In this document: one piece after another, positions 4,581 through 43,218 of the stretch | Position numbering within the stretch: the first letter of the stretch is position 1 | How the letters are laid out: the number at the start of each line of letters is the position of its first letter | From: a phage | Strand: one strand, 5' to 3' | Length of the DNA: 64,000 bases | Sequence record: PV467749.1 | The notes under the pieces: model-generated | What the model was told of the DNA's origin: nothing | Databases searched by the model: none | The model's input: only the letters and a program-made list of their open reading frames with translations | Program-made: the position numbers and the translations under genes

Positions 4581-4802
4581 TCATTCTCCATCATATTCAG
4601 TGAGTATTACACTATGTACGGTTTCAATATAGCGTTGTGTTTTTGATGTGTTGTACTTAGTTACTTCATCAAACAATTTAAATAGTGCATGTGTTGGACT
4701 TAATGCACGAACAAATACATCAATCTTCTGTACTTCTTTCTTATAACCACGTACATTATTAAACTCAGATACATGCTCATACACAATGTAGTAACGATTC
4801 AT
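4581..4802 (-). CDS. hypothetical protein
   Basis: 73-aa ORF. Confidence 0.4.
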   Translation of the reverse strand: MNRYYIVYEHVSEFNNVRGYKKEVQKIDVFVRALSPTHALFKLFDEVTKYNTSKTQRYIETVHSVILTEYDGE

Positions 4803-5314
4803 ATATTAAGTAGTTCCATAAATTCATCGATCAAGGAAGTTCTAATGCACATAACAAATTCAAAATCAACATCGATAGTATCGAGTAGTTTGAACAACTT
4901 TGGTACATTTGGATCATTCAACTGGAAGTTATGAATCAAGCTCTGTTGAAACACACTTTCTTCAGTACTGTAATCAATAACAAAATATTCAGCTACACCT
5001 GGAGGTGAATAAACATCATATAATATCTGACGTTTATTGTGTGTTTCTGAACCAGGACAATATATAAGTTCTATTTCATATGAACCTGCCGAGGATCTAT
5101 CATAAAACACAATTTCAGTACTGATTATTTCACTACCATCACTTCGTTCATGAAAACATACATCGGCATATCGTTTGCCATTTGGCTTCAAAATCTCATG
5201 AGTTGTTTTACCATAACATTTATCAGTTTCAATGTGAATTTTGTCTTGATATTCAGAACGTCTTACATCATTTCCACGATTAAACAATAAGATCAACAAC
5301 TCATTAATATCCAT
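4799..5314 (-). CDS. FQxS-motif paralog family protein
   Basis: 171 aa; C-terminal STEESVFQQSLIHN matches family motif [DE][DE]x2FQxSx[VI]. Confidence 0.55.
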   Translation of the reverse strand: MDINELLILLFNRGNDVRRSEYQDKIHIETDKCYGKTTHEILKPNGKRYADVCFHERSDGSEIISTEIVFYDRSSAGSYEIELIYCPGSETHNKRQILYDVYSPPGVAEYFVIDYSTEESVFQQSLIHNFQLNDPNVPKLFKLLDTIDVDFEFVMCIRTSLIDEFMELLNI

Positions 5315-15333: not shown

Positions 15334-16491
15334 ATGTCAAGATCGATTGCTGCTGCTGGACAATATAAGTTCGGTGAATGTGGATATGTAGTCGATGGTG
15401 CAATTCTCAACGATGGGACTAAACTCAAAAATGTTCGAATCTATCGTCAGAGAAGCCATAGATTATATGATTTACTTGATCCTGTAAGTAATGTAATTTA
15501 TCGTAAAGTACAAATTACAACAAAGGATATACAAGGATATCAATTAAACTACAACAAAACTAATGACCAAATCCTAAGTGAAATAAGAAAGAACTCTTTT
15601 TTCGTAAGAGGATACTCAGATGCTAAACTTGAATCAGATCCTACTGGGTTTGTTTATAAGTTTCTTTTGCACAAAACAATTCTAGGTAGTTCACAAACAC
15701 TATATAATATGTACACCCCTGAATGCGGGATTATAGATAGAGATATAGACAACATCCTTATGTTCCCAACGTTCGTAGGTGATGATTTGGTAGGTGGTCG
15801 CCTATTCAACGCAGGTTCAGCCATTGATACAACTGGAATGCGTATTACCGTTATACTTCCTGACGGAACCGAGTACTTCACAACTGAAATAATTGATGAT
15901 GTTTTTAGTATTCCAGTTGATCCAATTACTCAATCCGGTAAAGGAGCCATCATACTCACATCTGACATATATAATACCAAAACTATTGAATTTGATATAC
16001 TAGAAAGCGGCGAAGATATTGACTTCGTTACTTCAGTACTTCTATCTCAGTTTGAGTACACGTCCGATGGTATGTACATGGCAACTGTACCAGCTACTGT
16101 GCATGAGCGTGGTGAGTATCTTGCTCTACAAGCATACAGTGGTGATTTATTCCAAATTGGAGTAGACCTCATTGTAGATCCTAGCGGTAATATTACTGTG
16201 TACCAAACTGATGATGCTCCAATCTCATTGAGTATTATTGGTAAAACCTTACACACCACTCCATATCACAACACGTATACTGATAGTGATTGGGTAGATG
16301 ATGGTGATTCTATGTACACACTGTCCATTCCTGCCAGTGAACATGGTAAAATCCTCCCACAAGTTCAAGTCTATGCTGAAGACAATCACGTTGTACTAAG
16401 TGAAGTTGAACTCGATGCAGATGATAATGTTGTATTAAAAGTTGTTGAACCATTTGGCTGTACTGTAGTCATTGTTGGTTATAACGCATAA
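15334..16491 (+). CDS. hypothetical protein (only substantial plus-strand gene)
   Basis: 385-aa ORF with RBS GGAGGG upstream, followed by bidirectional terminator. Confidence 0.6.
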   Translation: MSRSIAAAGQYKFGECGYVVDGAILNDGTKLKNVRIYRQRSHRLYDLLDPVSNVIYRKVQITTKDIQGYQLNYNKTNDQILSEIRKNSFFVRGYSDAKLESDPTGFVYKFLLHKTILGSSQTLYNMYTPECGIIDRDIDNILMFPTFVGDDLVGGRLFNAGSAIDTTGMRITVILPDGTEYFTTEIIDDVFSIPVDPITQSGKGAIILTSDIYNTKTIEFDILESGEDIDFVTSVLLSQFEYTSDGMYMATVPATVHERGEYLALQAYSGDLFQIGVDLIVDPSGNITVYQTDDAPISLSIIGKTLHTTPYHNTYTDSDWVDDGDSMYTLSIPASEHGKILPQVQVYAEDNHVVLSEVELDADDNVVLKVVEPFGCTVVIVGYNA

Positions 16492-18651: not shown

Positions 18652-19104
18652 TTAGTTATATGAAGTGAATAGATCGATACTTTCATCATCTACACTGATT
18701 AATTTACCAGTTGAACTAACAAACACAATATTACCACCAGGGGTGAGTTGAACACGCTGATTTACTGAATATTGATCACTAAGGTTATAATTAGCCCATT
18801 CAACTACATAACGCTGTTCAACACCATTAGTATCATAAAGATAAACGTGTGTAACATCACGCATTTTTAAACGTTCTAGCAGTGTTGAGTTATCCATGAA
18901 ATCAGATGGTGTGTCACTACGTAATGCGATACCAAACTCACCAATACCAGTACTAATAGTTAGACCGTTGGAAAAACGACTACAAAGAGTTTTCTCGTCA
19001 GCAATATGCATCCATAAAACATTCTTTACATCAATCTCAATGAACTCACAATTTTCAAACACTAACCCTACTTTAGAAACCTTACCATTAAATTGCATCA
19101 TCAA
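18652..19104 (-). CDS. hypothetical protein (possible degenerate FQxS-family member)
   Basis: 150 aa ending DDESIDLFTSYN, partial family motif. Confidence 0.45.
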   Translation of the reverse strand: MMMQFNGKVSKVGLVFENCEFIEIDVKNVLWMHIADEKTLCSRFSNGLTISTGIGEFGIALRSDTPSDFMDNSTLLERLKMRDVTHVYLYDTNGVEQRYVVEWANYNLSDQYSVNQRVQLTPGGNIVFVSSTGKLISVDDESIDLFTSYN

Positions 19105-19537
19105 CTCCTATTTTTTTGTATTTTAAAATAAAATCTCTTGCTGCTTTCATAAGTTTAAATGGAATAGCTAATTCTTTGACAGTACTATCCATGAAATGTT
19201 CTTCTTCTGTATCATAGAATGTTGACGTGTAGTGTTCACAATCATCAATTCTATCCCAGATACTTGGCGTGTCAGCAATAACAGTGATTTGTTTATCAGT
19301 TTTGGTATGTGCCGCATGGACCGTAAATCCAATATCACCCGTTTCAACACGAATTACAAACGATTTATCAGATATATAGCTCAACCAGCAATCTTTACCG
19401 AAGTATACAGTACTGTGTTTCTTCTCAAATGTATTACTGTTTTCAAGTACATCAATGACAATATCAACCTCATTATCACTTAAAATTTTATTCATATCAT
19501 CTTCCTCGTAGGTTTCTGGCAATTTCAAAGATACCAT
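19088..19537 (-). CDS. FQxS-motif paralog family protein
   Basis: C-terminal TEEEHFMDSTVKE. Confidence 0.5.
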   Translation of the reverse strand: MVSLKLPETYEEDDMNKILSDNEVDIVIDVLENSNTFEKKHSTVYFGKDCWLSYISDKSFVIRVETGDIGFTVHAAHTKTDKQITVIADTPSIWDRIDDCEHYTSTFYDTEEEHFMDSTVKELAIPFKLMKAARDFILKYKKIGVDDAI

Positions 19538-19901
19538 TTATGTTGTCAACTGACAATCCACACATATCGTATAATGTAGATAGCTGAAAGAACATATCTT
19601 CATCTATAGTAACATGTTCAATCTGCATTTGCAAGAGCACTTCACCAAGAAAATGATCGTATGTTTGTATCTTAAAAGAATCATAATATATATCAATGAA
19701 GAATTTTGGCACACCATAGAACGAAACGACAAGTACAATGTTGTCAGAAGCTTCACATGGAACACTCAATGTATTTTTAAATGAACGGTATTCAAATGTG
19801 TACGGGTCTACGTCACATGTATAGAATGAACTACACCCTTCAGAAAATATTACACCATTTTCAATTAGCATAGATAGTGTATGTGGTGGAATTTTCAACA
19901 T
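19497..19901 (-). CDS. FQxS-motif paralog family protein
   Basis: C-terminal DEDMFFQLSTLYD. Confidence 0.5.
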   Translation of the reverse strand: MLKIPPHTLSMLIENGVIFSEGCSSFYTCDVDPYTFEYRSFKNTLSVPCEASDNIVLVVSFYGVPKFFIDIYYDSFKIQTYDHFLGEVLLQMQIEHVTIDEDMFFQLSTLYDMCGLSVDNINGIFEIARNLRGR

Positions 19902-19909
19902 TTAAATGT

Positions 19910-20326
19910 TTATCCTTTATTTTGTTGTACGTTTTTATGTAGTACACCACAAATATAAAATAATTTACTTAGATTAGAATAACTTATGTTAGTTAGATCG
20001 TATACGAAATTTAGTTGCATGTACATATCTTCAGTTAAATCATACAACGATTCATCCACATCAATTACGATTTTGTGCGTGGTATCAATCTCTACTTTAT
20101 TAGGCCACATATCAATAACATAATCATTACCATGTTTTTCAGATATGGAAATGAACACATTATCGCTTTGTTCTAAAAACTCCATGTATCCGTTAAGAAA
20201 TGATCCAGTTATTATCTCATATTCACCAGAATAATACGTTGTTCTGGACTCAAATGCATTAAAAAATATAAAACGATATGTTTGGTTGATATACTCATCC
20301 ATTAAACTAATAACTTCTTTATTCAT
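19910..20326 (-). CDS. FQxS-motif paralog family protein (variant)
   Basis: C-terminal TEDMYMQLNFVYD; start placed at Met21 (20326) with RBS GGGGA because ORF-track start 20386 overlaps a terminator hairpin. Confidence 0.45.
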   Translation of the reverse strand: MNKEVISLMDEYINQTYRFIFFNAFESRTTYYSGEYEIITGSFLNGYMEFLEQSDNVFISISEKHGNDYVIDMWPNKVEIDTTHKIVIDVDESLYDLTEDMYMQLNFVYDLTNISYSNLSKLFYICGVLHKNVQQNKG

Positions 20327-20343
20327 TACATTAATCCCCACAA

Positions 20344-20373
20344 GAAAAAAGGCCGATTCATTATGAATCAGCC
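20344..20373 (-). terminator. rho-independent terminator
   Basis: Hairpin GGCTGATTCAT-A-ATGAATCGGCC followed by T-run on minus strand. Confidence 0.5.
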
Positions 20374-20566
20374 TTAAGTATAACACAGTAGAAGTAAAAA
20401 TGTCAACTTCTAAAATACAGTATCAAAGAGGAATAAAAAAGATACTGTTAGAGGGTAACGAATATAATGAACCATGAGGGTGATATCATTATACTTTAAA
20501 AGAGTGATAGCTTCTAGACAAAAGGAGGAATTCAGTACCGACTAGAAGCTATCCGGTTAAACGATT

Positions 20567-20851
20567 TCAGTACTGAATGTTTAGTTTAGGATGAGTATGT
20601 CCATCTTCGATTTGCTTTAGAATCGAGTCGCGGATCTCCACTGCACCCTGATAACTGTATTTATCGTTCGGAACTACCCATGTATATTCACCATCAGTGG
20701 TTTTAAAATCAATACATGGATTGTCTCTGTATTCAGATGCAATGATTGAAATAACATGCAATGAATTCAATGAATGATTTATATAAGGATAATTGTTATT
20801 GTCTCGGAACGTGAATGTTTTTAGTTCATCAGGTGCAACAATAAATTCCAT
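20567..20851 (-). CDS. hypothetical protein
   Basis: 94-aa ORF. Confidence 0.45.
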   Translation of the reverse strand: MEFIVAPDELKTFTFRDNNNYPYINHSLNSLHVISIIASEYRDNPCIDFKTTDGEYTWVVPNDKYSYQGAVEIRDSILKQIEDGHTHPKLNIQY

Positions 20852-21042
20852 TATTCATCCTCGTACTTCTTGAATGGTTGAACATCTCCATTGAAGTCTT
20901 TGCACATCTTAGTTACACGAACTTCAGTGTTGTTGTGGTAATTTTTCTTAAATTCATAAGAAACATAATTACGAATACCAGGTGTATGAATAATAGCAAG
21001 AACCAATGTACGACCAAATAAGCATAACAAATTCAAAAACAT
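20851..21042 (-). CDS. hypothetical protein
   Basis: 63-aa ORF. Confidence 0.35.
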   Translation of the reverse strand: MFLNLLCLFGRTLVLAIIHTPGIRNYVSYEFKKNYHNNTEVRVTKMCKDFNGDVQPFKKYEDE

Positions 21043-21055
21043 ATTAAGCTCCGAG

Positions 21056-21415
21056 TTATGGATTAATCAAACGACACATACCAACTATAACATTTATCTC
21101 TTCTAATGTCAAGTCACCAATGTCATTTATCATTGAGTACTGGAATAATGACTCTTCTGTGTACTCAAAATCATGTACTGCTATAAAAAATGGCTCCTTA
21201 GAAACATCTAATGTTATCTTAGCCATTGTACTATATAAATCAAATTGATACAAAATATTAGGAGAAGTATATGCTATGTATATATTATTAGATTCTGATG
21301 GGTGTACCAGTGTGAATACATCATAACATAATATTTTTATGTTAGGATCATCAAAATTACCAGTATAAAGATTCTTACGAACATCTTGCATTATACGAGT
21401 TATTAAACTAGTCAT
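21056..21415 (-). CDS. FQxS-motif paralog family protein
   Basis: C-terminal TEESLFQYSMIND. Confidence 0.5.
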   Translation of the reverse strand: MTSLITRIMQDVRKNLYTGNFDDPNIKILCYDVFTLVHPSESNNIYIAYTSPNILYQFDLYSTMAKITLDVSKEPFFIAVHDFEYTEESLFQYSMINDIGDLTLEEINVIVGMCRLINP

Positions 21416-21824
21416 TAAACGGATTTGTAACCTCTTCTGGAATCAATCTTTTAACTTTAAGGATAGCACTAATGTCCTCAAATGTCAATCCATTTAGATC
21501 GTTTACGAGACAGTACTGAAAGAATTTTTCTTCAGTATCAATATCGTCAAAATTCAATTCAATCCTAGTGTCATAATAATCACTATTTACATTAGCAATT
21601 CTGATTTTAACTCGTTCAAAATACACATCAAATGAATAAAAATGATTATTGATTTCATAACCAAGAAAAATATTAAAACATTTACTCAAATCAGTGGTTT
21701 CGTTCAAATCGTCATCATAGCAAAAAACTCTAACTTCACCAATATCTTCTAATTGTACATCATGCAGTGACCATGCGTTGTTTTTTAATACGTAGTTCAC
21801 CATTTTAACAATGTTGTATGTCAT
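21408..21824 (-). CDS. FQxS-motif paralog family protein
   Basis: C-terminal TEEKFFQYCLVND. Confidence 0.5.
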   Translation of the reverse strand: MTYNIVKMVNYVLKNNAWSLHDVQLEDIGEVRVFCYDDDLNETTDLSKCFNIFLGYEINNHFYSFDVYFERVKIRIANVNSDYYDTRIELNFDDIDTEEKFFQYCLVNDLNGLTFEDISAILKVKRLIPEEVTNPFND

Positions 21825-21840
21825 ATTGTACCTTAAAAAA

Positions 21841-22248
21841 TTATTTACGATTCCTTGCGGAGTTCTTGTTCCTTGCTCTGAATGTTGGTGTCATCGAATG
21901 ACAATTAGGGCAAAGGATTTTTAAATTTGGTAGGTCATTATTTGTAGCATCACCATCAATGTGCTCAACTTCTGTCAGTACTGCACCATCTATTGGATGA
22001 CGTTTATCCCATCCACACTCTTCACATGCAGTTCCGCGTGTTTCATGTAGATATCTTCTCACAAATGGACATAACTGTATAGTAATACCTTTATATCCTG
22101 GATGTTCACCGTTAAGCCATTTATCAACTTTCTGTTGATATTGTAGCTCTTGTTGACATGCAACACTACAATATTTTGTTTGACCCTTTCGAACCAATTC
22201 AATTTTACAACATGCACAATAACGTTTTTCTTTCATATAGTTCTCCAT
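21841..22248 (-). CDS. HNH endonuclease
   Basis: CxxC...CxxC zinc pairs and EVEHIDGDATNNDLPNLKILCPNCH; start set at Met21 because the longer ORF overlaps tRNA-Thr. Confidence 0.6.
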   Translation of the reverse strand: MENYMKEKRYCACCKIELVRKGQTKYCSVACQQELQYQQKVDKWLNGEHPGYKGITIQLCPFVRRYLHETRGTACEECGWDKRHPIDGAVLTEVEHIDGDATNNDLPNLKILCPNCHSMTPTFRARNKNSARNRK

Positions 22249-22301
22249 ATAGTATGGAGTATTTATTTTCAAGAAAAATGTTATTTCTAAGAATATATTT
22301 G

Positions 22302-22372
22302 TGGTCAATATTAGAATCGAACTAATGACTCAGACTTACAAGATCCGTGTTATACCATTTAACTAATCAACC
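22302..22372 (-). tRNA. tRNA-Thr (anticodon TGT)
   Basis: Hand-folded cloverleaf: acceptor GGTTGAT/ATTGACC, D-stem GTTA/TAAC, anticodon stem CGGAT/GTCTG with loop CTTGTAA, T-arm ATTAG-TTCGATT-CTAAT. Confidence 0.65.
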
Positions 22373-22544: not shown

Positions 22545-22813
<269 letters not shown>

Positions 22814-24961: not shown

Positions 24962-25339
<378 letters not shown>

Positions 25340-25700: not shown

Positions 25701-25726
25701 CATTATATCAGTACTGAACTATTTAG

Positions 25727-25731
<5 letters not shown>
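25701..25731 (-). promoter_or_regulatory. sigma-70-like promoter (TTGACT-17-TATAAT), copy of repeat
   Basis: Minus strand TTGACT AAATAGTTCAGTACTGA TATAAT; about 30-bp element repeated at 26123..26152. Confidence 0.5.
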
Positions 25732-26152
<421 letters not shown>

Positions 26153-26321: not shown

Positions 26322-26325
<4 letters not shown>

Positions 26326-26482
26326 ATTCGTACCAGTAGTTCAATTAAGTACATTTCATATGCTGGATCGTTGATAAGTTTATCATACAGATGTGGCTCT
26401 GAAATGAATTCCCAATGATACTTTAGCCATTTACCGATACCCGAATATCTAAAATTAATATCATTCATCCATTCTTCATGTG

Positions 26483-26486
<4 letters not shown>
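26322..26486 (-). CDS. MTHEEW small-protein family, copy 2 (54 aa)
   Basis: MTHEEWMNDINFRYSGIGKWLKYHWEFISEPHLYDKLINDPAYEMYLIELLVRI; ATGA overlap with neighbours. Confidence 0.45.
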
Positions 26487-26647
<161 letters not shown>

Positions 26648-27980: not shown

Positions 27981-28151
27981 CTATTTCCTAATTGCAAGCT
28001 CATAGATGAACCAGTGATTACTATCCTCATCAAGTACAAATGATTTGAAAAGTTGTTTATCTTTTAACACATCATAATGACCTTGGCGTATACCAAAACC
28101 AAAAGGATTATGTTTAAATTTTAGTTCATCTAACCATTCTTTGTGTGTCAT
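27981..28151 (-). CDS. MTHEEW small-protein family, dispersed copy (56 aa)
   Basis: Hand-translated MTHKEWLDELKFKHNPFGFGIRQGHYDVLKDKQLFKSFVLDEDSNHWFIYELAIRK. Confidence 0.4.
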   Translation of the reverse strand: MTHKEWLDELKFKHNPFGFGIRQGHYDVLKDKQLFKSFVLDEDSNHWFIYELAIRK

Positions 28152-28333
28152 CTTATTTTGTCCATGACTGCTATACTAAAATATGTACCAAAATCATCAC
28201 AATTGATGATGTTGTTATAGTACTCGATTGGGTTACGCAATGATATATACAATTCAAGCTTAAAATAGTATATATCTGCTGCATTTATATTATAGTGTAG
28301 ATTAAACCACTCATCAAATGTCTTAGGCTGCAT
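28148..28333 (-). CDS. hypothetical protein
   Basis: 61-aa ORF. Confidence 0.35.
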   Translation of the reverse strand: MQPKTFDEWFNLHYNINAADIYYFKLELYISLRNPIEYYNNIINCDDFGTYFSIAVMDKIR

Positions 28334-28727
28334 TATATTTATCTTTATAAAAATCCATGATTTTAGTCAACAGTACTGCAATCGTATAATCTAAATCAGG
28401 ATAAAGTAAATTGTACTGAAATTCTTCCTCTACACTATAGTTTGTGGTGCAGTACTGATAGTCTTTATAACCAATGGAAAAATGGTTAGGATACAATGTA
28501 CAACGAAAACGATATGCTTCATCTGTCATATAATCATTGTATTCAACACAGAAGTATAGTGATTTGGCATTTAATTCAATAAGCTCAACGAAACCATCAG
28601 GTAATGAATGGTTATAAATTACTGAATCTTCATTAAACCATTCATAGTATTTTTCCAAAAAATCACTAATGGATACATCCAGACTTTGTATAGGTGGAGT
28701 AATGACAATTTGAACTTCGTTATTCAT
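28323..28727 (-). CDS. FQxS-motif paralog family protein (variant)
   Basis: C-terminal SVEEEFQYNLLYPD. Confidence 0.45.
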   Translation of the reverse strand: MNNEVQIVITPPIQSLDVSISDFLEKYYEWFNEDSVIYNHSLPDGFVELIELNAKSLYFCVEYNDYMTDEAYRFRCTLYPNHFSIGYKDYQYCTTNYSVEEEFQYNLLYPDLDYTIAVLLTKIMDFYKDKYNAA

Positions 28728-29230
28728 TTCGACCCCTTACTATATTTCACGTATGGGCTATCATACAGATCATAACTTTTTTGTGCACGTTCTTTTCGGC
28801 GTTCATACATGATTCTATCATACTCTTTAGCTTTCTGATTTGCTTCATTATACAATTTTAAAATTAGCAAAAATGCATCAAGATCGGGATAGTTTGCTGG
28901 ATTGATAGTACTCAGCATAAATCGTTCTTCTTCAGTTCTAGCTAAGTCAAATTCATACTTAATAGTTTTATACCCACTCCATTTATATATATGCGTTACT
29001 TTATTAGTAAGTACATTATATTCAACGAAGTCAGTACTACCATCAAGTACACGAGTAATCTTAATAGATGTACCAATGACAATCTGTACAGAACTCATTT
29101 CTGAAGTTTTAAAGTAAAAAATGTTATTACGGCGAAGATTAACTTCTCGATCTCCAATGCGAACATGCTTAATAACTTCCATTAATGGTTCTGGGACACC
29201 ACGAATCGGCATGTTAGTATTCCTCAACAA
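28724..29230 (-). CDS. hypothetical protein
   Basis: 168-aa ORF. Confidence 0.5.
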   Translation of the reverse strand: MLRNTNMPIRGVPEPLMEVIKHVRIGDREVNLRRNNIFYFKTSEMSSVQIVIGTSIKITRVLDGSTDFVEYNVLTNKVTHIYKWSGYKTIKYEFDLARTEEERFMLSTINPANYPDLDAFLLILKLYNEANQKAKEYDRIMYERRKERAQKSYDLYDSPYVKYSKGSK

Positions 29231-29830: not shown

Positions 29831-30223
29831 TTACCAGCATGTTTTCATAACTTCTGTGATGTAAATCATTTTATCTTTTAGTTCATAAGGGATGCAAATT
29901 TCACCTGGGCTTAACGTTGTGTTCTTTTGAAACTCATCCTCTTCGGAATCAGCCAGGTAAAATGGGTGCGTCACAAAGTTATCATCAACTGGACGATTAT
30001 GTGGTTTCATTAATGCATCATGATTGACAAAATAATAAGCATCAATATCAGGACGGAAATACAAACAATCAACCTTAATGCACGGGTGTAACCATAAGGA
30101 CAAAGAATATGTTATTTGGTTACCAATTTGTCTTGGACCAGATGCAATTGTATTGATGTTATTTTTATCTTGTACCATTTCATAAATGAAATCTATCATT
30201 TTACGTAGTTCAGATTCAGTCAT
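29831..30223 (-). CDS. FQxS-motif paralog family protein (variant)
   Basis: C-terminal SEEDEFQKNTTLSP. Confidence 0.45.
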   Translation of the reverse strand: MTESELRKMIDFIYEMVQDKNNINTIASGPRQIGNQITYSLSLWLHPCIKVDCLYFRPDIDAYYFVNHDALMKPHNRPVDDNFVTHPFYLADSEEDEFQKNTTLSPGEICIPYELKDKMIYITEVMKTCW

Positions 30224-34617: not shown

Positions 34618-35061
34618 TTACTCCTTAAAGTAGATATCACGAATTTGCTTAATCATCTCTAACTCTTGAAGTCCTATCATACCAAAGTTTTCTTGAACTG
34701 TCAACTGTTGGAAGTACATTTCCTCTAAATTATTATAAGGAATATCCACTAATGATAAAGGTACTCGTTCTTCACTGAATGCCAGATCTTCAACTAAATG
34801 TTTTATAATCATAACAGTAAATGAATCTTTTTGTATATGAAATTTGTAAAACGTTTGGTTAGTAGTGAACATTGTGTTTGATGGATGGAAACCCATTTCG
34901 ACAAATACTGTATCTTTATCATTATGTGTGCAATATGTACATCTTGAATTCGCAAGAACTTTAGATTTTGGGTAATAAAAATCACCCAGCAACTTCTGTC
35001 GTTTCCAGTCCTCATATACAACTGGATGCTTAACCTTCTTCAATCGGTGCAGTACTGTCAT
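34618..35061 (-). CDS. FQxS-motif paralog family protein
   Basis: C-terminal LEEMYFQQLTVQE. Confidence 0.5.
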   Translation of the reverse strand: MTVLHRLKKVKHPVVYEDWKRQKLLGDFYYPKSKVLANSRCTYCTHNDKDTVFVEMGFHPSNTMFTTNQTFYKFHIQKDSFTVMIIKHLVEDLAFSEERVPLSLVDIPYNNLEEMYFQQLTVQENFGMIGLQELEMIKQIRDIYFKE

Positions 35062-35441
35062 AGTTTTTTCCAGTCCAATGAATCGAAATCGATTTGTTCA
35101 GGGTTATCAACAGCGACAACTCGTGCATTATGAAGAGTTTCAAAGTAGCCGTTCCACGGTGTTCGTAATGGAACTGTCACATCACCAACTTTAACCAAGA
35201 ATGAATATGCTGGTGATATTGGGTCAAACCACTCTTTTTGTTTAGCATTTTCGACGATGGTTTCGTGTTCTTTTGTATAGCAATTATCTTGCTTCATATA
35301 AAACACCCAATGCTCTTTTAGGCACTGTAAAGCAGCAACTGCTTCCTCTTTAGAAGACCATTGAATATCAATTGTATTAAGAACGTCATAACAATTTTCA
35401 GTATCACCTGTAGTGTAATGTACTTCAATGCAGTATTTCAT
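35058..35441 (-). CDS. hypothetical protein
   Basis: 127-aa ORF. Confidence 0.5.
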   Translation of the reverse strand: MKYCIEVHYTTGDTENCYDVLNTIDIQWSSKEEAVAALQCLKEHWVFYMKQDNCYTKEHETIVENAKQKEWFDPISPAYSFLVKVGDVTVPLRTPWNGYFETLHNARVVAVDNPEQIDFDSLDWKKL

Positions 35442-35896
35442 TATTCATCACCTTTTAGTAATTTACAAATTTCAATCATATGATAATAACATGTATTCCA
35501 AAATTGCCCATTAGTACTACCAACATCATGCACAGTACTTTGTTGGAAAACATATTCATCATTGAACAACTTTTTAATGTCATCAATGTAAAATTCTGGT
35601 TTTGAATCATTATTGTATTCAATACTCGTTTCACCATCTGGATCAAGTGAAATTGATGATATGTCGTGAATTCCTATCGGATTTGTTGGACAAATTCTCA
35701 ACGTAAGAGGATAGAAGTCTGGATCGGTTTCATATGTATATCCGATTATGTAATTACCATCTCCAGTGATTGAGTTATATTTAAATTTAGGTTCAAATAC
35801 ATTATGGACATTATAACCTAGTTTATTCATCTCGTTAAGATGTAATAATATTTTATGTAAAGTCCCTAAGACATGAATCAAATTATCAATTTTCAT
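35441..35896 (-). CDS. FQxS-motif paralog family protein
   Basis: C-terminal NDEYVFQQSTVHD. Confidence 0.5.
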   Translation of the reverse strand: MKIDNLIHVLGTLHKILLHLNEMNKLGYNVHNVFEPKFKYNSITGDGNYIIGYTYETDPDFYPLTLRICPTNPIGIHDISSISLDPDGETSIEYNNDSKPEFYIDDIKKLFNDEYVFQQSTVHDVGSTNGQFWNTCYYHMIEICKLLKGDE

Positions 35897-36435
35897 TTAC
35901 GATCCTTTGAAAAGTTCAGTTTAAAAGATTTACCAAATTCCATTGTAGCTTTACCCAGATTGTTAATATTTTCTTTCAACATTTCTTGCATTTTTCTCAC
36001 ACTTTCATTCCAGGCTTCCTCTTCTTTACGGAGGATTGGTCGCAATCGTTCCTGAATATCGTTAAAACGTGTATTGAGTTCAACCAATGATTCATATGTG
36101 AAATCTTTCATGTCGATGATAGTACTTCGTTGAAAGAATTCTTCTTCGGATAAATTACTCAAAATGATTTTATCACTACCAATAGATAATGTCAATTCAT
36201 CATCTTGATTTTTTTTAATTACAATACGTACAGGTGATTTTATAGTAATGTGAACATCATGATTATTAAAAGTTTCAGTTTTGTTTGACGTTCTGAATTG
36301 TAGTCTTCCGGTTAGTGCGTGTACTGGCATTGGGTTCTTTTTACCAGTAATAACATCTTCCCACGAATCAAGGATATTATTAATAATTTTAACATAAGGA
36401 ACTGTCATATATGCACCTATGAAAAATCCACGCAT
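35893..36435 (-). CDS. FQxS-motif paralog family protein
   Basis: C-terminal SEEEFFQRSTIID. Confidence 0.5.
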   Translation of the reverse strand: MRGFFIGAYMTVPYVKIINNILDSWEDVITGKKNPMPVHALTGRLQFRTSNKTETFNNHDVHITIKSPVRIVIKKNQDDELTLSIGSDKIILSNLSEEEFFQRSTIIDMKDFTYESLVELNTRFNDIQERLRPILRKEEEAWNESVRKMQEMLKENINNLGKATMEFGKSFKLNFSKDRK

Positions 36436-36450
36436 AGCGTGGATCTGTAA

Positions 36451-36981
36451 TTAATCGAGTATAGTAACTTCAATCAAACGAATTTCGATGAATTCGTTTT
36501 CAGTTTCCCATGATGAACCTAATTTCTTATTAAGTTCAGTTTTAACATCACTTTTAAATTTTCCCATAGTATTAGGAATAATTTGTTTGGTTAGTTTGTC
36601 ATAACCACAATAAAACATAGGTTTCTCCCTTCGAGATATTAGCTCAACAAAATCCTTTGGATATGCAGGTATATTATGCATCACTTCATGAATGCACTCA
36701 GTACTTGAATCTTGTACTTTGTACATTACATTAAGTTTACCTTTGAAAGTTCTAATCATATCAACAATAATACCTTTACCAGATTTAAGTAAAGTTCCAT
36801 TCTTTGTATGAGAACAATAGAATACCTCATCACCAATATTAGGATAGTACAAATTAAATTCTAATTCTTCCTTTGATGACTGACGTTGAAATTTCATTAC
36901 ACGTTCAGTATAGGTGGGGTAGTTCTTCATGTTCAAAAGAATATCTCTCTTAGTAAGTGTGATATAACTGGCATAGTCCAT
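36451..36981 (-). CDS. hypothetical protein
   Basis: 176-aa ORF directly downstream of methyltransferase; no Vsr-type motifs seen. Confidence 0.5.
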   Translation of the reverse strand: MDYASYITLTKRDILLNMKNYPTYTERVMKFQRQSSKEELEFNLYYPNIGDEVFYCSHTKNGTLLKSGKGIIVDMIRTFKGKLNVMYKVQDSSTECIHEVMHNIPAYPKDFVELISRREKPMFYCGYDKLTKQIIPNTMGKFKSDVKTELNKKLGSSWETENEFIEIRLIEVTILD

Positions 36982-38822
36982 CCATTCCCAAGCATTTTGT
37001 ATGCTTGTGTCTTACTAGACACTTTAAAGAAATCTACAGGAATACCCTGTAATTTACAACATTCTACTACACTTAAGTGTCTATAGTCAATATTTCTTTT
37101 ACCATTCTCCAATAGATATTGACGATTAATCGTTGGGTCACGAAACACCAACTGTCGTCTTGATTTATTAAAGTACTGGTTACAATCACCACCCTTAAAA
37201 TAGTTAGCATCTATACAGTACGAAGCGGTTCTGTCAGTGTACCAACCATCTTCAATGATATCTTGAAGTTTAGGGGCATTTGATAATGCAGGTGGTATAA
37301 AAAGCTTATCAGTACTGCACCAGTAGTATCTCTGCCTGAAGTGAGGCGTATAATGCTGGGAATTTATCAGTACTGGTGTCATCTCAAGAACACTATTAAT
37401 GTATTGCTTGAAATCTTCTTTCATCTTAACATTCTCAAAGAGAACTTTCAAGTTAGGATTTAAACTTTTTATGTGTTGGTAGATATCAACCATCGTGTGA
37501 AACAACATTCCACGTGGGTCATTTATACCACCCTGTTTACCAGCAACTGACCATGCTTGACAATTGTGAACAACTATATTATTTGCAGTGTACGTGTTAT
37601 CAACAGCAACTTCAAAATTATATACAGTTTTCCATTCTCCAGTATGAGTGCTAGTTTTTACACCTTTAACCCACGAATAATTTTTGTCATAAAAAGCTTC
37701 CTCTTTTTTCGGTTGGTCTTTTTTATATGACAAAACATAATAAGGTTTTTGGTTAACAACTCGATTTTCAATAACTTTGGTATTCTCTGGTTGAGTATAG
37801 CTTATATTGGAATGCCTTCCATATACGTTCATTATCAATTGTTGAATACCCAATACACAGTTTATTGATGTTGTAGTGAATTTATAACATCCACTATCAA
37901 TATGTCCATCAGCGTCAAAGTAACCATCAAGAAATGCTTTTTGGTTTTTTATGCATTCCGTGAATAGTTCTGGGTGTACTTGTTTGTTAGAAGCACCCTT
38001 TCCCATTTGTTCACAAAATTCAACCAGATCTTTTGAACATATATAAAATTTATATGAAGTTCTTTCTTTAACATAATTATATTTCATATTCATACCATCA
38101 AAACATGAAACTAATTCATTAAATTCGTCATGTGCACAACAGATGAAAACTCTATATTGGTAACTATTGGTTCTATTGTTACGTTTTACTTTATATGTCC
38201 ATCCATCACCCATAAAGCGACCCATAAAATACCAGAATTTTTCATCTTTCGTTGATTTGTTAGATTCAACTGATTTAACATTACACAGAAAATGGTCATA
38301 TGTCAAATCATGTGCCTCTACCCATTCTGGTTCAGAAAAATGACGTTCATATTGTCTAATGTTGTTATTCCACATAGACGTCATTTTTCTTGAATAAAAG
38401 GGATGATTATCGGTACATTCAATTGGAAGGTGACCTTGACCTGTAATAATACGAGTGGGAGCATTTTTAACACCAGTACTCAAAACTGGATGATATTTAC
38501 CAGTATGTGTCAGTACCATGTCACCAACTTGAATGTCTTTTATATCTTTATGACCTTTGTCTGTCATAATCATGGTTCCTGCTGGGAAGCATGGAAATCC
38601 ACCCATTAATAAATCTATTTTATCCCACTCAATATCCCATTCTCTCCATTTAGTTACATCACCCAATTGGGTGATATCAGGAAAGTTAGCTTGAGATTCA
38701 GCTATTGCGTACTTGTCAATTTCGGATGAATAATATTTTTCAACAGGGATACCAGCATCTTTTAATGCCATGTATCCAACACTCATCCCATTAAAAAGAG
38801 ATAGTACTCTGATAGGTTTCAT
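36933..38822 (-). CDS. DNA (cytosine-5)-methyltransferase, intein-containing
   Basis: Motif I LFNGMSVG; motif IV split as GGFP / CQAWSVAGK by a 343-aa insertion; motif VI LFENV downstream. Confidence 0.75.
   Translation of the reverse strand: MKPIRVLSLFNGMSVGYMALKDAGIPVEKYYSSEIDKYAIAESQANFPDITQLGDVTKWREWDIEWDKIDLLMGGFPCFPAGTMIMTDKGHKDIKDIQVGDMVLTHTGKYHPVLSTGVKNAPTRIITGQGHLPIECTDNHPFYSRKMTSMWNNNIRQYERHFSEPEWVEAHDLTYDHFLCNVKSVESNKSTKDEKFWYFMGRFMGDGWTYKVKRNNRTNSYQYRVFICCAHDEFNELVSCFDGMNMKYNYVKERTSYKFYICSKDLVEFCEQMGKGASNKQVHPELFTECIKNQKAFLDGYFDADGHIDSGCYKFTTTSINCVLGIQQLIMNVYGRHSNISYTQPENTKVIENRVVNQKPYYVLSYKKDQPKKEEAFYDKNYSWVKGVKTSTHTGEWKTVYNFEVAVDNTYTANNIVVHNCQAWSVAGKQGGINDPRGMLFHTMVDIYQHIKSLNPNLKVLFENVKMKEDFKQYINSVLEMTPVLINSQHYTPHFRQRYYWCSTDKLFIPPALSNAPKLQDIIEDGWYTDRTASYCIDANYFKGGDCNQYFNKSRRQLVFRDPTINRQYLLENGKRNIDYRHLSVVECCKLQGIPVDFFKVSSKTQAYKMLGNGWTMPVISHLLREIFF
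37563..38591 (-). mobile_element. intein with LAGLIDADG homing-endonuclease domain
   Basis: Starts CFPAGTMIMTDKG (block A), TDNHPF (block B), two LAGLIDADG-like motifs (FMGRFMGDGW, LDGYFDADGH), ends VVHN followed by Cys. Confidence 0.7.
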
Positions 38823-39479: not shown

Positions 39480-39935
39480 TTAATTGAACTCGATTTCTGG
39501 ATAATGATTATAGAACATCTCACGTACTGCGTCAAGCTGTTCTTTAAATTTCTCAATGTCATCAAGAGTTAGTACAGTGTTACTAACTGTACTCAACTGA
39601 AAAAGTGCCTCTTCAGTACTGTTTTCTGATAAATCAAATGTACATGATGAATCATCTGTTATAATATTATCACATATTTCAAATGTGTCAATATGAACAT
39701 CATTGAGTAGATCACCACTATAATCATTATATATGAACACAAAAATGTATGATGGTTTTTTTATCTCAGTTTCTGACTCATAGGCTACTAAATCATATGT
39801 TACGTAACATTTAAAGTCAGGTGAATCGTATTCCATAGATACAATTCCTATATCACGATATTGATTCGCTTCACTGATTAAATCCGGTATAGGTGTAATA
39901 CTAAGTAAATGGAAAAACTGTCCTGGATTTAGCAT
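39480..39935 (-). CDS. FQxS-motif paralog family protein
   Basis: C-terminal STEEALFQLSTVSN. Confidence 0.55.
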   Translation of the reverse strand: MLNPGQFFHLLSITPIPDLISEANQYRDIGIVSMEYDSPDFKCYVTYDLVAYESETEIKKPSYIFVFIYNDYSGDLLNDVHIDTFEICDNIITDDSSCTFDLSENSTEEALFQLSTVSNTVLTLDDIEKFKEQLDAVREMFYNHYPEIEFN

Positions 39936-40384
39936 TTGATTACCTTCGGGTTTTGCTCTGTGATATCAAACATAGATAGAACGAAATCATTTAGCTTTTC
40001 AACACAATTGATTATAGTGCTTAAATCAGAATAACTAACTGTTAAATTTTTAACAAGAGATTCCTGAAAGTATCCTTCTTCAGTTGAGCAATAACTCACA
40101 TTTGAGATAGTCTCATAATGTATATCTTTGCTTGTTTTACATGTTATAATTTCTATTATATCCGATGTTGTGTTATATAATAATATAAATGTTGTTGTTC
40201 GTGAATTCTTATTGTAAAATGCGAGTTCAGTGCTGTCATATGTTTTCTCAATAAGAACATTGTACTCTTCCGAAAACGATGTGGAAATTCTAATTATCTC
40301 TTCTGGATCAGGAACATAAGAGCCATCAAATTTACAAGACAATGCAATTTCAAAATGATTTTTTATTTCATCAATTTTCATCAT
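39929..40384 (-). CDS. FQxS-motif paralog family protein
   Basis: C-terminal STEEGYFQESLVKN. Confidence 0.55.
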   Translation of the reverse strand: MMKIDEIKNHFEIALSCKFDGSYVPDPEEIIRISTSFSEEYNVLIEKTYDSTELAFYNKNSRTTTFILLYNTTSDIIEIITCKTSKDIHYETISNVSYCSTEEGYFQESLVKNLTVSYSDLSTIINCVEKLNDFVLSMFDITEQNPKVIKC

Positions 40385-40776
40385 AGCTCACCATTTAATT
40401 TGCTATTTACATATTCTAATGCTTTTTTAACAATGCCAATTTCGGTAACTCCTATTACATTTTTCTCGATTAACGACAATTGAAATAGTTCATCTTCCTC
40501 AATATCAATACTATGGGTTCTTGACCAATAAACGTTGAAGTCATATGCATATCGTATTGTATTTTCTTTAATATCAAGTACCAATATAACCATACCATTG
40601 TGTAGGTATGTCAGTGTTTTTCCGTATATATTAAAAATTAACCTATCTGGTGTACCCAATGGAAGATGAATTATATTTTGTGTAGTTCCAACAATAACAA
40701 AATCATTATCTATATTTTTATTCAAGTCACCTAGAATGTCATATATAGTAGTCATGTTAATCTTGACCCTCAGCAT
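40381..40776 (-). CDS. FQxS-motif paralog family protein
   Basis: C-terminal EEDELFQLSLIEK. Confidence 0.55.
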   Translation of the reverse strand: MLRVKINMTTIYDILGDLNKNIDNDFVIVGTTQNIIHLPLGTPDRLIFNIYGKTLTYLHNGMVILVLDIKENTIRYAYDFNVYWSRTHSIDIEEDELFQLSLIEKNVIGVTEIGIVKKALEYVNSKLNGEL

Positions 40777-41176
40777 TTCTGATGATTCGCATTACTTCTC
40801 TGGATACGTTGTATACTTTTTTATAGTACTCAAATGTAACTGAACCAAAATCATTAACAGTACTATCCATGAAGAACGATTCTTCGGTGCAATACACACC
40901 TGTAATTGAAACATGCTCATGATGGAATTTAGCATCTTTCCAGTAACGGAATTCGAAAATAAATTGCCCGTCATGACCAACCCTACAACACTCAGCACGG
41001 TCACTGTCTACGCAGCTAATCACAATATCCCTTTCGGAGTCATACCAGATATTTCCAATATTTGTTTCAATAACTGCATAATCAATTTTTGTAGAATTGG
41101 GAATTACACCTTTTTTTACCAGTACTAGACTGGTATTATCAATATCAAGTAAACTTACCATATCAACTCCCCACAA
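40757..41176 (-). CDS. FQxS-motif paralog family protein
   Basis: C-terminal TEESFFMDSTVND. Confidence 0.55.
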   Translation of the reverse strand: MWGVDMVSLLDIDNTSLVLVKKGVIPNSTKIDYAVIETNIGNIWYDSERDIVISCVDSDRAECCRVGHDGQFIFEFRYWKDAKFHHEHVSITGVYCTEESFFMDSTVNDFGSVTFEYYKKVYNVSREVMRIIRNAEGQD

Positions 41177-41573
41177 TTACTGTGTTTTTGATTTCTAACA
41201 ATTCACTATACATCTTCTTCAATTGTACAATATCTTCATATAAAATACCACCCATATCATCAATCAAAGAACGTTGGAATAGTGATTCATCTGACTGTAT
41301 CGTGTCCAAATCAGAAATTTTCAATACTGTAACTGGGTTTAGGGTGTTTACAATAAGTTTGTTTGTGTATGGGATGTATGTGATCTTGATATTCATTTCC
41401 GAATCAAGGGCATACAACCTCAAAACAGACAAATCACCACAAAGTTGGATTTTTGGTTCATCAAACTCATCAGACCACCACATAGTACTAGTCATATAAT
41501 TGACGTGTTGGTTCAAATGTGATATATCCAAATCGAAATAATATTTTAGTTCATTGTGTAAATCTAAACTCAT
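41163..41573 (-). CDS. FQxS-motif paralog family protein
   Basis: C-terminal SDESLFQRSLIDD. Confidence 0.55.
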   Translation of the reverse strand: MSLDLHNELKYYFDLDISHLNQHVNYMTSTMWWSDEFDEPKIQLCGDLSVLRLYALDSEMNIKITYIPYTNKLIVNTLNPVTVLKISDLDTIQSDESLFQRSLIDDMGGILYEDIVQLKKMYSELLEIKNTVIVGS

Positions 41574-41628: not shown

Positions 41629-42024
41629 TCAAGATGTGAATTGCTCATACCAGTGATACAGTTCTTTTAATTCTTCAGTACTGAATAGAACATCTTCAAT
41701 CGTTGTTTGTTGGAAGTGGTAATCTTCATTTAAGTACATTGAAATATTTTTATATACTTTTCGATTACATTTCCCAAGAAATGATGTTCTTTTGGATGTA
41801 TATTCAATAAATGTTAACTTATCTAATTCTACATCCAATGACAATTTCATACAGTATTCAGTATCATCTACGTACATAAGTTTATTTGAATAACAATCAA
41901 CTGTGATATATTCTTTATGTGAGAATTGGTATATACCATTAAATTTTTTACCATTTGTACTTCTGAATTTTTCAAGGTAATAAGAGAGTGGTTTAGATAT
42001 TGTACTACCAATAGTATTATTCAT
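41629..42024 (-). CDS. FQxS-motif paralog family protein
   Basis: C-terminal NEDYHFQQTTIED. Confidence 0.55.
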   Translation of the reverse strand: MNNTIGSTISKPLSYYLEKFRSTNGKKFNGIYQFSHKEYITVDCYSNKLMYVDDTEYCMKLSLDVELDKLTFIEYTSKRTSFLGKCNRKVYKNISMYLNEDYHFQQTTIEDVLFSTEELKELYHWYEQFTS

Positions 42025-42789: not shown

Positions 42790-43218
42790 TTATAGGGAAG
42801 CTTCGTATTCAGCTACAATGTCAACCATCTCATTGACAAAGTTGATGTGGTCATGAGTTACGGTACGGAAATCATAAACCAGTGATTGTTGGAAGAATAC
42901 GTCTTCAGCCAGATTACCTTCAAAGTTCAGGTCGATGTTTTCTTCATCGTTGGTTGGAGCAACTTTGATATTTAGTTGATTTTCATCAACGACCAATTTC
43001 ACTACACAACCCAATGCAATCGCCAGTACATAGGCAGGTTTCTTAGCTGCTTCAGAACGGAATGGAGCACGTAGTGCACAAATGGTGCTGCTAATCTCAT
43101 CATTCAGTTCTTTATATTTAACGTTAATCATCAGTTCTTCAATTTTGACGCTCTCGATTACACGACCAGTTTCAGCAGCGAAGAAAGAGTGGTTACGGAT
43201 AGTTTGTTCGATATTCAT
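42790..43218 (-). CDS. FQxS-motif paralog family protein
   Basis: C-terminal AEDVFFQQSLVYD. Confidence 0.55.
   Translation of the reverse strand: MNIEQTIRNHSFFAAETGRVIESVKIEELMINVKYKELNDEISSTICALRAPFRSEAAKKPAYVLAIALGCVVKLVVDENQLNIKVAPTNDEENIDLNFEGNLAEDVFFQQSLVYDFRTVTHDHINFVNEMVDIVAEYEASL

Follow-up and report, generated by a model that had tools for sequence, protein, structure and literature searches.

A large family of small FQxS-motif proteins in Asteriusvirus-type jumbo coliphages and a separate AGTACT signal in their DNA

Introduction

The stretch analyzed here, 64,000 nt of phage DNA from sequence record PV467749.1 (the window, meaning that whole stretch), contains between positions 19,088 and 21,824 a group of small minus-strand genes whose products share a short FQxS motif. 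The recurrence of this motif raises the question of whether the genes form a protein family or whether a repeated DNA element happens to be translated in each of them and, if they are a family, how large it is and what its members might do. An earlier sequence-only reading had taken five of the genes to be a cluster of paralogs, had named four dispersed singletons, and had placed conservation at the protein level while attributing the STEE part of the motif in several members to the palindrome TTCAGTACTGAA.

Across region 19000-22000, identity is 97.6% with Escherichia phage WPEC5 and 83 to 98% with ~35 other Asteriusvirus-type jumbo coliphages, including PBECO4, 121Q, G17, slurp01 and phAPEC6; by this identity, the window is DNA of an Asteriusvirus-type Escherichia coli jumbo phage. 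The minus strand carries nearly all of its open reading frames (ORFs), with four tRNA genes interspersed among them, and every annotated ortholog of the five genes is a "hypothetical protein."

Results

The five genes belong to one protein family

A direct check found all five ORFs exactly where the sequence-only reading had put them, on the minus strand and containing the peptides it had quoted. In the lines below, E-values (E) are from comparison with a hidden Markov model (HMM) built from relatives outside the window.

19088..19537, minus strand: member, motif TEEEHFMDSTV, HMM E 6e-9; likely start at 19495; match to phrog_24027 begins at residue 15
19497..19901, minus strand: member, motif DEDMFFQLSTL, HMM E 5e-14; closest paralog is the adjoining 19910 gene
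19910..20326, minus strand: member, motif TEDMYMQLNFV (a variant with F to M and S to N), HMM E 1e-12; phrog_35192
21056..21415, minus strand: member, motif TEESLFQYSMI, HMM E 5e-15; phrog_17453
21408..21824, minus strand: member, motif TEEKFFQYCLV, HMM E 1e-14; protein chosen for structural modeling

The bounds 19088..19537 describe an ORF that is present, and its start is probably the internal ATG that gives 19088..19495, as annotated in WPEC5. For 19910..20326, an alternative longer GTG start (20386) would cross a terminator hairpin.

The recurrence of the FQxS motif in the window is far above chance: 9 window ORFs match a strict pattern, [ST]E[ED]..F[QM].[ST], and 17 match a looser one, where residue-shuffled proteomes give 0.01 and 0.28, respectively. 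All-versus-all BLASTP of the window ORFs gave weak links centered on the motif and two strong pairs of neighbors, namely the 21056 and 21408 proteins (30% identity across 128 amino acids [aa], E 1.6e-13) and the 19497 and 19910 proteins (E 2e-7), in which the similarity spans the whole protein, beyond the motif. Profile iteration within the window converged at 18 ORFs, and the HMM from non-window relatives alone picked out these 18 as well, all at E ≤ 1e-5; the five genes fell between 6e-9 and 5e-15, and the best-scoring ORF beyond the 18 reached 0.07. The five genes are thus shown to be genuine coding genes that belong to a single, very large multigene family restricted to one clade; the family's proteins are small (about 100 to 240 aa) and mostly acidic. 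Full-length similarity between neighbors and the non-window HMM uphold the core of the sequence-only reading, a paralogous gene cluster with a common motif. Its account of the family's extent fared less well: among the singletons, 4799..5314 and 25727..26092 are robust, 28323..28727 is a distant relative found only after profile iteration, and 29831..30223 is unsupported, and the family size it implied was too low by about an order of magnitude. The remaining 13 of the 18 members are as follows.

4799..5314, minus strand: singleton member, motif STEESVFQQSL, HMM E 1.4e-9; phrog_28118
25727..26092, minus strand: singleton member, motif TEEEYFQTSTV, HMM E 3e-11; phrog_34619; sigma70-like promoter 35 nt upstream
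28724..29230, minus strand: robust member absent from the earlier list, motif TEEERFMLSTI, HMM E 1.4e-8; basic C-terminal extension, isoelectric point (pI) 9.3
34618..35061, minus strand: member, motif LEEMYFQQLTV, HMM E 3e-13
35441..35896, minus strand: member, motif NDEYVFQQSTV, HMM E 7e-9
35893..36435, minus strand: member, motif SEEEFFQRSTI, HMM E 4e-13; basic C-terminal extension; phrog_38573
39480..39935, minus strand: member, motif STEEALFQLSTV, HMM E 9e-13; phrog_30548; pI 4.05
39929..40384, minus strand: member, motif STEEGYFQESLV, HMM E 6e-14
40381..40776, minus strand: weakest of the 18 members, motif EEDELFQLSLI, HMM E 1e-5
40757..41176, minus strand: member, motif TEESFFMDSTV, HMM E 4e-15
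41163..41573, minus strand: member, motif SDESLFQRSLI, HMM E 2e-11; phrog_24941
41629..42024, minus strand: member, motif NEDYHFQQTTI, HMM E 2e-8
42790..43218, minus strand: member, motif AEDVFFQQSLV, HMM E 3e-12

Further ORFs carry weaker or uncertain versions of the motif.

28323..28727, minus strand: probable distant member, one residue shorter (SVEEE-FQYNLL); E 0.07 against the non-window HMM, hhalign probability 4%
24962..25339, minus strand: borderline candidate member (ADEADEFQKRTV); hhalign probability 11%
29831..30223, minus strand: motif-like string SEEDEFQKNT (EE..FQ at the right position) only, membership unsupported; HMM E > 1 in every profile search, hhalign probability 2%

In the related Asteriusvirus TH47 (MT446416, 352,450 bp), a profile search within the genome picks up the ortholog of 28323..28727 as a family member at its first iteration. 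ORFs taken, by position alone, as orthologs of 24962..25339 reach E 0.002 (TH47) and 0.007 (phAPEC6).

Conservation acts on the protein

The motif, with consensus [ST]-E-E-x-x-F-[QM]-x-S-[TL]-[VI]-x-D, is written in varied synonymous codons. The codon for the conserved Ser differs among the 18 members, being AGT (7), AGC (1), TCT (3), TCA (2) or TCG (1), and both Ser codon families are represented; Phe is TTT in 9 and TTC in 8; Gln is CAA in 10 and CAG in 5, with Met in 3; and both GAA and GAG are used for Glu. This variety argues for selection at the protein level, and the codon-level alignment bears out the proposal that conservation resides in the protein rather than the DNA: it is not confined to the palindrome, and neighboring members are similar over their full length.

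The palindrome itself proved mostly wrong as the source of STEE. The exact 12-mer TTCAGTACTGAA encodes the motif STEE in 0 of the 18 members, and AGT ACT stands at the motif S-T in only two, 4799..5314 (TACAGTACTGAA; STE as TAC AGT ACT GAA) and 39480..39935 (AGT ACT GAG). In 41629..42024 an exact copy does occur, but ~12 codons downstream of the motif, and it encodes FSTE there. With at most one mismatch, TTCAGTACTGAA has 18 copies in the window against 0.2 expected, mostly elsewhere: in unrelated genes as F-S-T-E, in other frames, across a stop codon and in intergenic DNA, as well as in the spacer of two sigma70-like promoters in the form TTGACTaaatagTTCAGTACTGaTATAAT. Tying the palindrome to the family had mistaken a genome-wide enrichment of AGTACT for a property of the family.

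AGTACT is a separate signal in the DNA

AGTACT is the most over-represented hexamer of the window, with 165 copies against ~22 expected, three times as many as any other 6-bp palindrome. When the coding DNA of the window was shuffled among synonymous codons, keeping every protein sequence and overall codon usage, 31.8 ± 5.4 copies remained against 144 observed, and 2.4 copies of the octamer CAGTACTG against 34. Each of the three frames shows four- to five-fold enrichment of AGTACT, and noncoding DNA has the same density, so the signal is independent of the family. The TH47 genome contains 917 AGTACT and 203 CAGTACTG (3.7 expected for CAGTACTG), with extra information in the AGTACT flanks at -1 C and +1 G only, and the RaK2-like Klebsiella phage OU509535 contains 945 and 246. 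Across genomes the fold enrichment is ~7 for the hexamer and ~55 to 80 for the octamer, and in the RaK2-like loci examined, including IMG/VR jumbo contigs, AGTACT is 6- to 14-fold enriched, except for one 1-kb piece at 2.8-fold. AGTACT/CAGTACTG is a separate, clade-wide DNA-level signal that overprints the family where S-T, Q-Y-x or V-L occurs. Its excess reflects DNA-level selection, possibly for a binding or modification site; we found no literature on the signal.

Two near-consensus sigma70 promoters on the minus strand, at 25702-25730 and 26124-26151, both carry the identical extended cTTGACTaaatagTTCAGTACTG(a/t)(t)ATAAT, and their conserved, palindrome-containing spacer may be a regulatory site. 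Many GC-containing 6-bp palindromes have zero copies in the window, including CCATGG, CAGCTG (~6 expected from base composition), ACCGGT, AGGCCT, AGCGCT and CCTAGG; this absence fits avoidance of restriction sites and is the opposite of the AGTACT excess.

The family is large and confined to RaK2-like jumbo phages

A census of the whole TH47 genome, which is unannotated, found 52 member ORFs in a single search pass (E ≤ 0.01), rising to 64 to 66 after iteration, with the FQ core aligned in all and EE..FQ.S in most. The bulk of the family in TH47 sits in one 28-kb array at 53.5-81.4 kb, with ~40 members as consecutive or near-consecutive minus-strand ORFs; the window corresponds to approximately 137-201 kb of TH47, placing this array outside it and smaller clusters within. 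OU509535 has 41 to 46 members. The family thus amounts to ~50 to 65 copies per Asteriusvirus genome, roughly a tenth of the gene complement. An exhaustive profile search returned 179 clusters at 50% identity, all of 60 to 220 aa, and the loose motif is present in 127 of 145 newly returned cluster representatives; ten clusters checked for origin came mostly from metagenome assemblies, on contigs of 2 kb to 362 kb.

The range of the family coincides with one phage clade. A word-indexed protein search matched only unnamed proteins on E. coli jumbo-phage contigs, and tblastn found relatives in Salmonella phages Munch, 7t3 and SE_PL, Klebsiella phages fENko-Kae01, RaK2 and K64-1, Pectobacterium phage CBB and Cronobacter phage GAP32; the family is present in every clade genus examined. 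In IMG/VR, a degenerate DNA pattern derived from the motif matched only on 345- to 378-kb contigs and one 109-kb contig; several ~10-kb loci, including ones on a 345,809-bp contig and on uncultured 357- to 366-kb contigs, hold tandem arrays of 5 to 9 members. Among cellular genomes (185,579 bacterial and archaeal species, one genome each), the same pattern gave four chance matches and no family member.

Searches of Pfam, NCBIfam, PADLOC and PDB sequences with single proteins and with the 18- and 142-member sets yielded no family match, Pfam returning only scattered noise for the 142 members at E ≤ 1. PHROGs contain the same proteins, split over at least 10 unrelated-looking groups that bear no function, motif or cross-link (phrog_17453, 24941, 24321, 23322, 24027, 35192, 28118, 34619, 30548 and 38573, all "unknown function"). 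Each window member has one strong PHROG match (E down to 1e-105) and several weak ones, always through the motif region. No description of the family was found in the papers searched on Asteriusvirus, RaK2, CBB, phAPEC6, Sharanji and fEgEco12 or in the jumbo-phage survey of Iyer et al., the sole related remarks being that ~10% of RaK2 products are paralogs (RaK2 paper) and that 22 CBB ORFs are paralogous (CBB paper). The family is apparently undescribed so far.

The motif is predicted to form a conserved C-terminal helix

AlphaFold2 (AF2) modeled the 21408..21824 protein from a 142-sequence alignment with a predicted local distance difference test score (pLDDT) of 86.4 and a predicted template-modeling score of 0.75; with 18 sequences, pLDDT was 70. 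The model comprises a helix (5-14), a six-stranded antiparallel meander sheet, a helix (98-107), a loop and a final helix (115-125). The motif, here T-E-E-x-[FY]-F-Q-x-S-[TL]-[VI]-x-D, makes up the N-cap and body of the first C-terminal helix (block pLDDT 86 to 95): T97 is predicted as the N-cap, with E98, E99 and often E100 in the first turn forming a classic capping box, followed by F101, F102, Q103, S105, T/L106 and V/I107 in the helix body and then D109. A second box, [TS]-x-E-[DE], opens helix 3.

In the 142 sequences, whose mean column identity is 9%, the most conserved columns are E98 (137/142), E99, F102 (140/142), Q103 (122 Q and 20 M), S105 (134/142) and D109, far above any position of the sheet, and the motif is the family's only strongly conserved part. 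The variable columns 100, 104 and 108 form one exposed stripe, and the other three faces are conserved; the motif helix is therefore probably largely buried in the modeled fold. The motif, in the wider form [ST]-E-[ED]-x-x-[FYM]-[QM]-x-[STNC]-[TL]-[VI], has a stereotyped position, ~30 to 50 residues before the C terminus of a 100- to 240-aa protein. An HMM of the N-terminal 90 residues alone has almost no profile signal, recognition being essentially through the C-terminal helix-loop-helix. The median pI of members is ~4.8 (most ~4 to 5) against 5.6 for all window ORFs, and longer members (up to 222 aa) have no recognizable fused domain.

Foldseek against BFVD returned only uncharacterized relatives from RaK2, CBB and Asteriusvirus phages. 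Among known systems near this family we count MAM33/p32/gC1qBP, the mitochondrial acidic matrix proteins, whose fold has an N-terminal helix, a seven-stranded antiparallel sheet and two C-terminal helices and which assemble as a doughnut-shaped homotrimer; a sequence match to these proteins was found neither in Pfam (142 members, E ≤ 1, noise only) nor among PDB sequences. An EF-hand was rejected: the loop D109-E116 has 8 to 9 residues against the 12 of a Ca-binding loop, and no Pfam EF-hand match occurs in the 142 members. A superficial likeness to the beta-clamp-binding motif QL[SD]LF was set aside on residue variability and helical context. Cleavage by tobacco etch virus (TEV) or 3C protease, whose sites (E-x-x-Y-x-Q|G/S) need Gln at P1 and Gly or Ser at P1', was rejected as well, given M for Q in 20/142, a next residue that may be L, Q, E or another, Ser at P2', and a location in the predicted helix 98-107 rather than in an accessible, extended segment.

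Members turn over among related phages and are probably expressed early

The nearest paralogs are neighbors, which indicates that the family arose by repeated tandem duplication. Between paralogs, the dN/dS (omega) that had been proposed as a check is meaningless, at ≤30% identity with saturated synonymous divergence (dS), and values were computed for orthologs instead. Against slurp01 and JP4, orthologs are 42 to 83% identical with omega 0.19 to 0.57, while the corresponding values for the adjoining non-family gene 20567..20851 are 94% and 0.06. Omega well below 1 points to purifying selection and hence to real genes. In the same comparison, dS jumps from 0.15 to 1.4 between neighboring genes, which argues for mosaic allele replacement by recombination, and the N- and C-terminal parts of the orthologs have diverged to a similar extent (63% and 69% identity). 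Copy number and allele content appear to have been turned over by recombination between related phages; the 19497..19901 gene is absent from fEgEco12, and members are probably individually dispensable.

Several perfect or near-perfect sigma70 promoter matches are predicted on the coding strand around the cluster. The CBB member CBB_398 lies within the CBB_390-546 block of short ORFs with RpoD-like promoters, which Buttimer et al. proposed, as a prediction, to be an early, host-takeover region. To judge by these sequence features, the genes would be transcribed early from host sigma70-type promoters. The phAPEC6 orthologs gp083c, 084c, 087c, 088c, 093c, 290c and 291c are missing from the list of 62 virion proteins identified by mass spectrometry (MS) (Table 1, PMC7247149), the virion protein gp037c is not a family member, and the giant array, estimated from coordinate offsets to correspond to ~gp470-530, falls where the virion list has no entry (gp348 to gp548). 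We infer that the proteins are not part of the virion.

Neighboring features of the window

Two predicted elements flank or divide the five-gene cluster.

22660..22687, minus strand: predicted sigma70-type promoter, TTGACA-16-TATAAT, 12/12 consensus, upstream of the tRNA-Thr, the HNH gene and the 21824-to-20567 gene run
20349..20375, minus strand: terminator-like hairpin, 12-bp stem and T-run, between the 21408/21056 pair and the 19910/19497/19088 trio

Besides this strong hairpin, the 240-nt intergenic region 20327-20566 holds an exact TTCAGTACTGAA overlapping the stop codon of 20567..20851 and an inverted repeat of 12 bp (gatagcttctag ... ctagaagctatc); a regulatory element or a small RNA could reside here. 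The HNH endonuclease gene (21841-22236, minus strand) sits between tRNA-Thr (22301-22372) and the member 21408..21824; it is found in WPEC5, slurp01 and JP4 lack it at this site, and fEgEco12 has no such annotation there. It is probably a mobile homing-endonuclease insertion. A C-5 cytosine DNA methyltransferase gene (36933-38822, minus strand) contains an intein after about residue 77, with Hint and LAGLIDADG homing-endonuclease domains (Pfam). A second, unrelated mini-family of ~54 aa (MTHEEWMNDINFRY...) occupies 26322-26486, 26483-26647 and 27981-28151 on the minus strand, with two tandem copies 70% identical and the third distant. Another large paralog block lies in WPEC5 at 26.6-45 kb, where ~15 tandem plus-strand genes encode proteins of ~380 aa annotated as RCC1/ATS1-like "chromosome condensation regulator." Judged from gene order and predicted mass, the lone plus-strand gene of the window, 15334..16491, is probably the counterpart of gp077 of phAPEC6, which MS detected in the virion.

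Discussion

The locus thus contains part of a very large protein family whose function is a matter for conjecture. Our best guess, held tentatively and with a little less than even confidence, is that the proteins are diversified binders or inhibitors that serve host takeover or counter-defense. A constant helical core would hold up a hypervariable surface of sheet and loops, each paralog would engage a different host target, whether a defense or a housekeeping protein, during takeover, and early, non-virion, individually dispensable proteins would together make up a diversified repertoire. Several observations weigh against this reading. Omega below 1 and the similar divergence of N- and C-terminal parts give no hint that a binding surface has been under positive selection. 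The near-invariant polar residues E, E, Q, S and D could mean one ligand or partner common to all paralogs. A fold common to all members is suggested by one model and by similar lengths, and the N-terminal 90 residues are nearly without signal. The early timing derives from promoter consensus matches and a published prediction, and the promoter scan overall is not enriched, with 61 matches against 75 in shuffles. In a combinatorial form of counter-defense, which we consider unlikely, the variable sheets of ~60 paralogs would each capture a different host immune or housekeeping protein, and the invariant TEE-FFQ-S helix would couple all of them to one effector step, such as docking to a host protease, a chaperone, RNA polymerase or a phage partner. 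If so, the family would be a phage counterpart of the variable-domain-plus-constant-adaptor immune-evasion families of poxviruses and African swine fever virus (ASFV), and the largest of its kind known from any phage.

Other accounts of these genes differ in how much of the evidence they absorb. That the ORFs are chance open frames in AT-rich DNA rather than genes is next to impossible; they are short, lack an annotated function and in many cases overlap by 4 to 40 nt, but their preservation as ORFs, at omega well below 1, among the Asteriusvirus genomes that were compared, their PHROG matches to E 1e-105, the 179 homologous clusters and the confident AF2 fold have already refuted it. A DNA-level account, in which the genes share translated copies of TTCAGTACTGAA or of a mobile repeat and form no real protein family, is scarcely more credible. 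It would explain the excess of near-exact 12-mers and the top rank of AGTACT among hexamers, but not why the motif is written with AGT ACT in just 2/18 members and otherwise in many synonymous codons from both Ser families, why most palindrome copies fall in unrelated genes, promoter spacers and intergenic DNA, or why AGTACT is equally enriched in all frames and in noncoding DNA; together with the full-length similarity of neighboring members, the codon-level alignment has already refuted it. We regard as quite improbable that the proteins are packaged virion components, that is, inner-body or internal proteins injected with the DNA like those of T4 or phiKZ. The phiKZ inner-body proteins are also a paralogous family, and small size and acidity, both seen in the members, are common among injected anti-restriction proteins. 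A capsid inner body is described for phAPEC6 (PMC7247149), but none of the mapped orthologs is among its 62 MS virion proteins, although MS can miss low-copy proteins; moreover, no listed virion protein occupies the estimated position of the array, and the genes lie among sigma70-type promoters and tRNA genes, outside the structural module.

Two further accounts take the motif itself as the functional element. It is somewhat less improbable, if still doubtful, that the motif is a short linear signal, such as a cleavage site, degron or docking peptide for one host or phage machine, common to otherwise unrelated proteins. The family signal is concentrated in ~40 C-terminal residues with the N-terminal HMM nearly blind, the polar motif residues outrank any core position of the sheet in conservation, and EEEYFQ-S resembles the TEV site ENLYFQ-S (E-x-x-Y-F-Q|S). 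The motif is, however, a confidently predicted helix that looks buried, with three of four faces conserved, rather than extended; the replacement of Q by M, the variable residue after Q and the Ser one position on are incompatible with 3C/TEV specificity; and neighbors align over their full length, with stereotyped motif position and protein length. The strongest alternative, unlikely as we judge it, is a phage-internal role, in which the proteins would be subunits oligomerizing through their conserved helices into a scaffold or compartment, or regulators or chaperones, with the invariant polar residues marking a common partner, a shared hub or an oligomerization interface. A conserved polar helix could be such an interface, and the family is kept in every genus of the clade examined, but single members are lost or swapped between near-identical phages, and the extreme divergence and copy-number variation are atypical of stoichiometric assemblies.

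Regardless of function, a single family that has no Pfam model and is scattered in PHROGs accounts for about a tenth of the genes of these 350-kb phages, and its recognition clears a large block of "hypothetical proteins" from the annotation of RaK2-like phages. A compact motif and an HMM are now at hand for finding members, and the family is a well-defined target for the question of why jumbo phages hold so many early genes. If the members prove to be host-directed inhibitors, they would constitute a ready library of small proteins that bind enterobacterial targets, comprising ~180 or more sequence clusters.

Among known systems, the small acidic phage inhibitors, including the DNA mimics Ocr, Arn and Ugi and many anti-CRISPRs, resemble the FQxS proteins in size, negative charge (pI ~4 to 5), presumed early expression, dispensability and rapid turnover, whereas no sequence or fold match to them was found in the PDB sequence and Foldseek BFVD searches, and we know of none of these families in dozens of copies per genome. 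The T4 internal proteins and the phiKZ inner-body paralogs are likewise small, paralogous, phage-specific and plausibly directed against host defenses, whereas FQxS orthologs were not detected in the phAPEC6 virion and their genes lie outside the late structural module. A parallel in organization is the ~35-copy zinc-ribbon family of Bacillus phage G, which was called "unprecedented" (Iyer et al. 2021, PMC7824862). Both consist of tandem arrays of fast-diverging small paralogs that are non-structural, presumably lie in early regions and take up a sizeable share of the genome; the FQxS family differs in fold and sequence, its role is putative, and its ~50 to 65 copies exceed ~35. Other lineage-specific expansions in large DNA viruses include the multigene families (MGF) of ASFV and the immune-evasion families of poxviruses. 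Viral lineage-specific multigene families are therefore a kind already known, among which the FQxS family is unusual mainly for its size.

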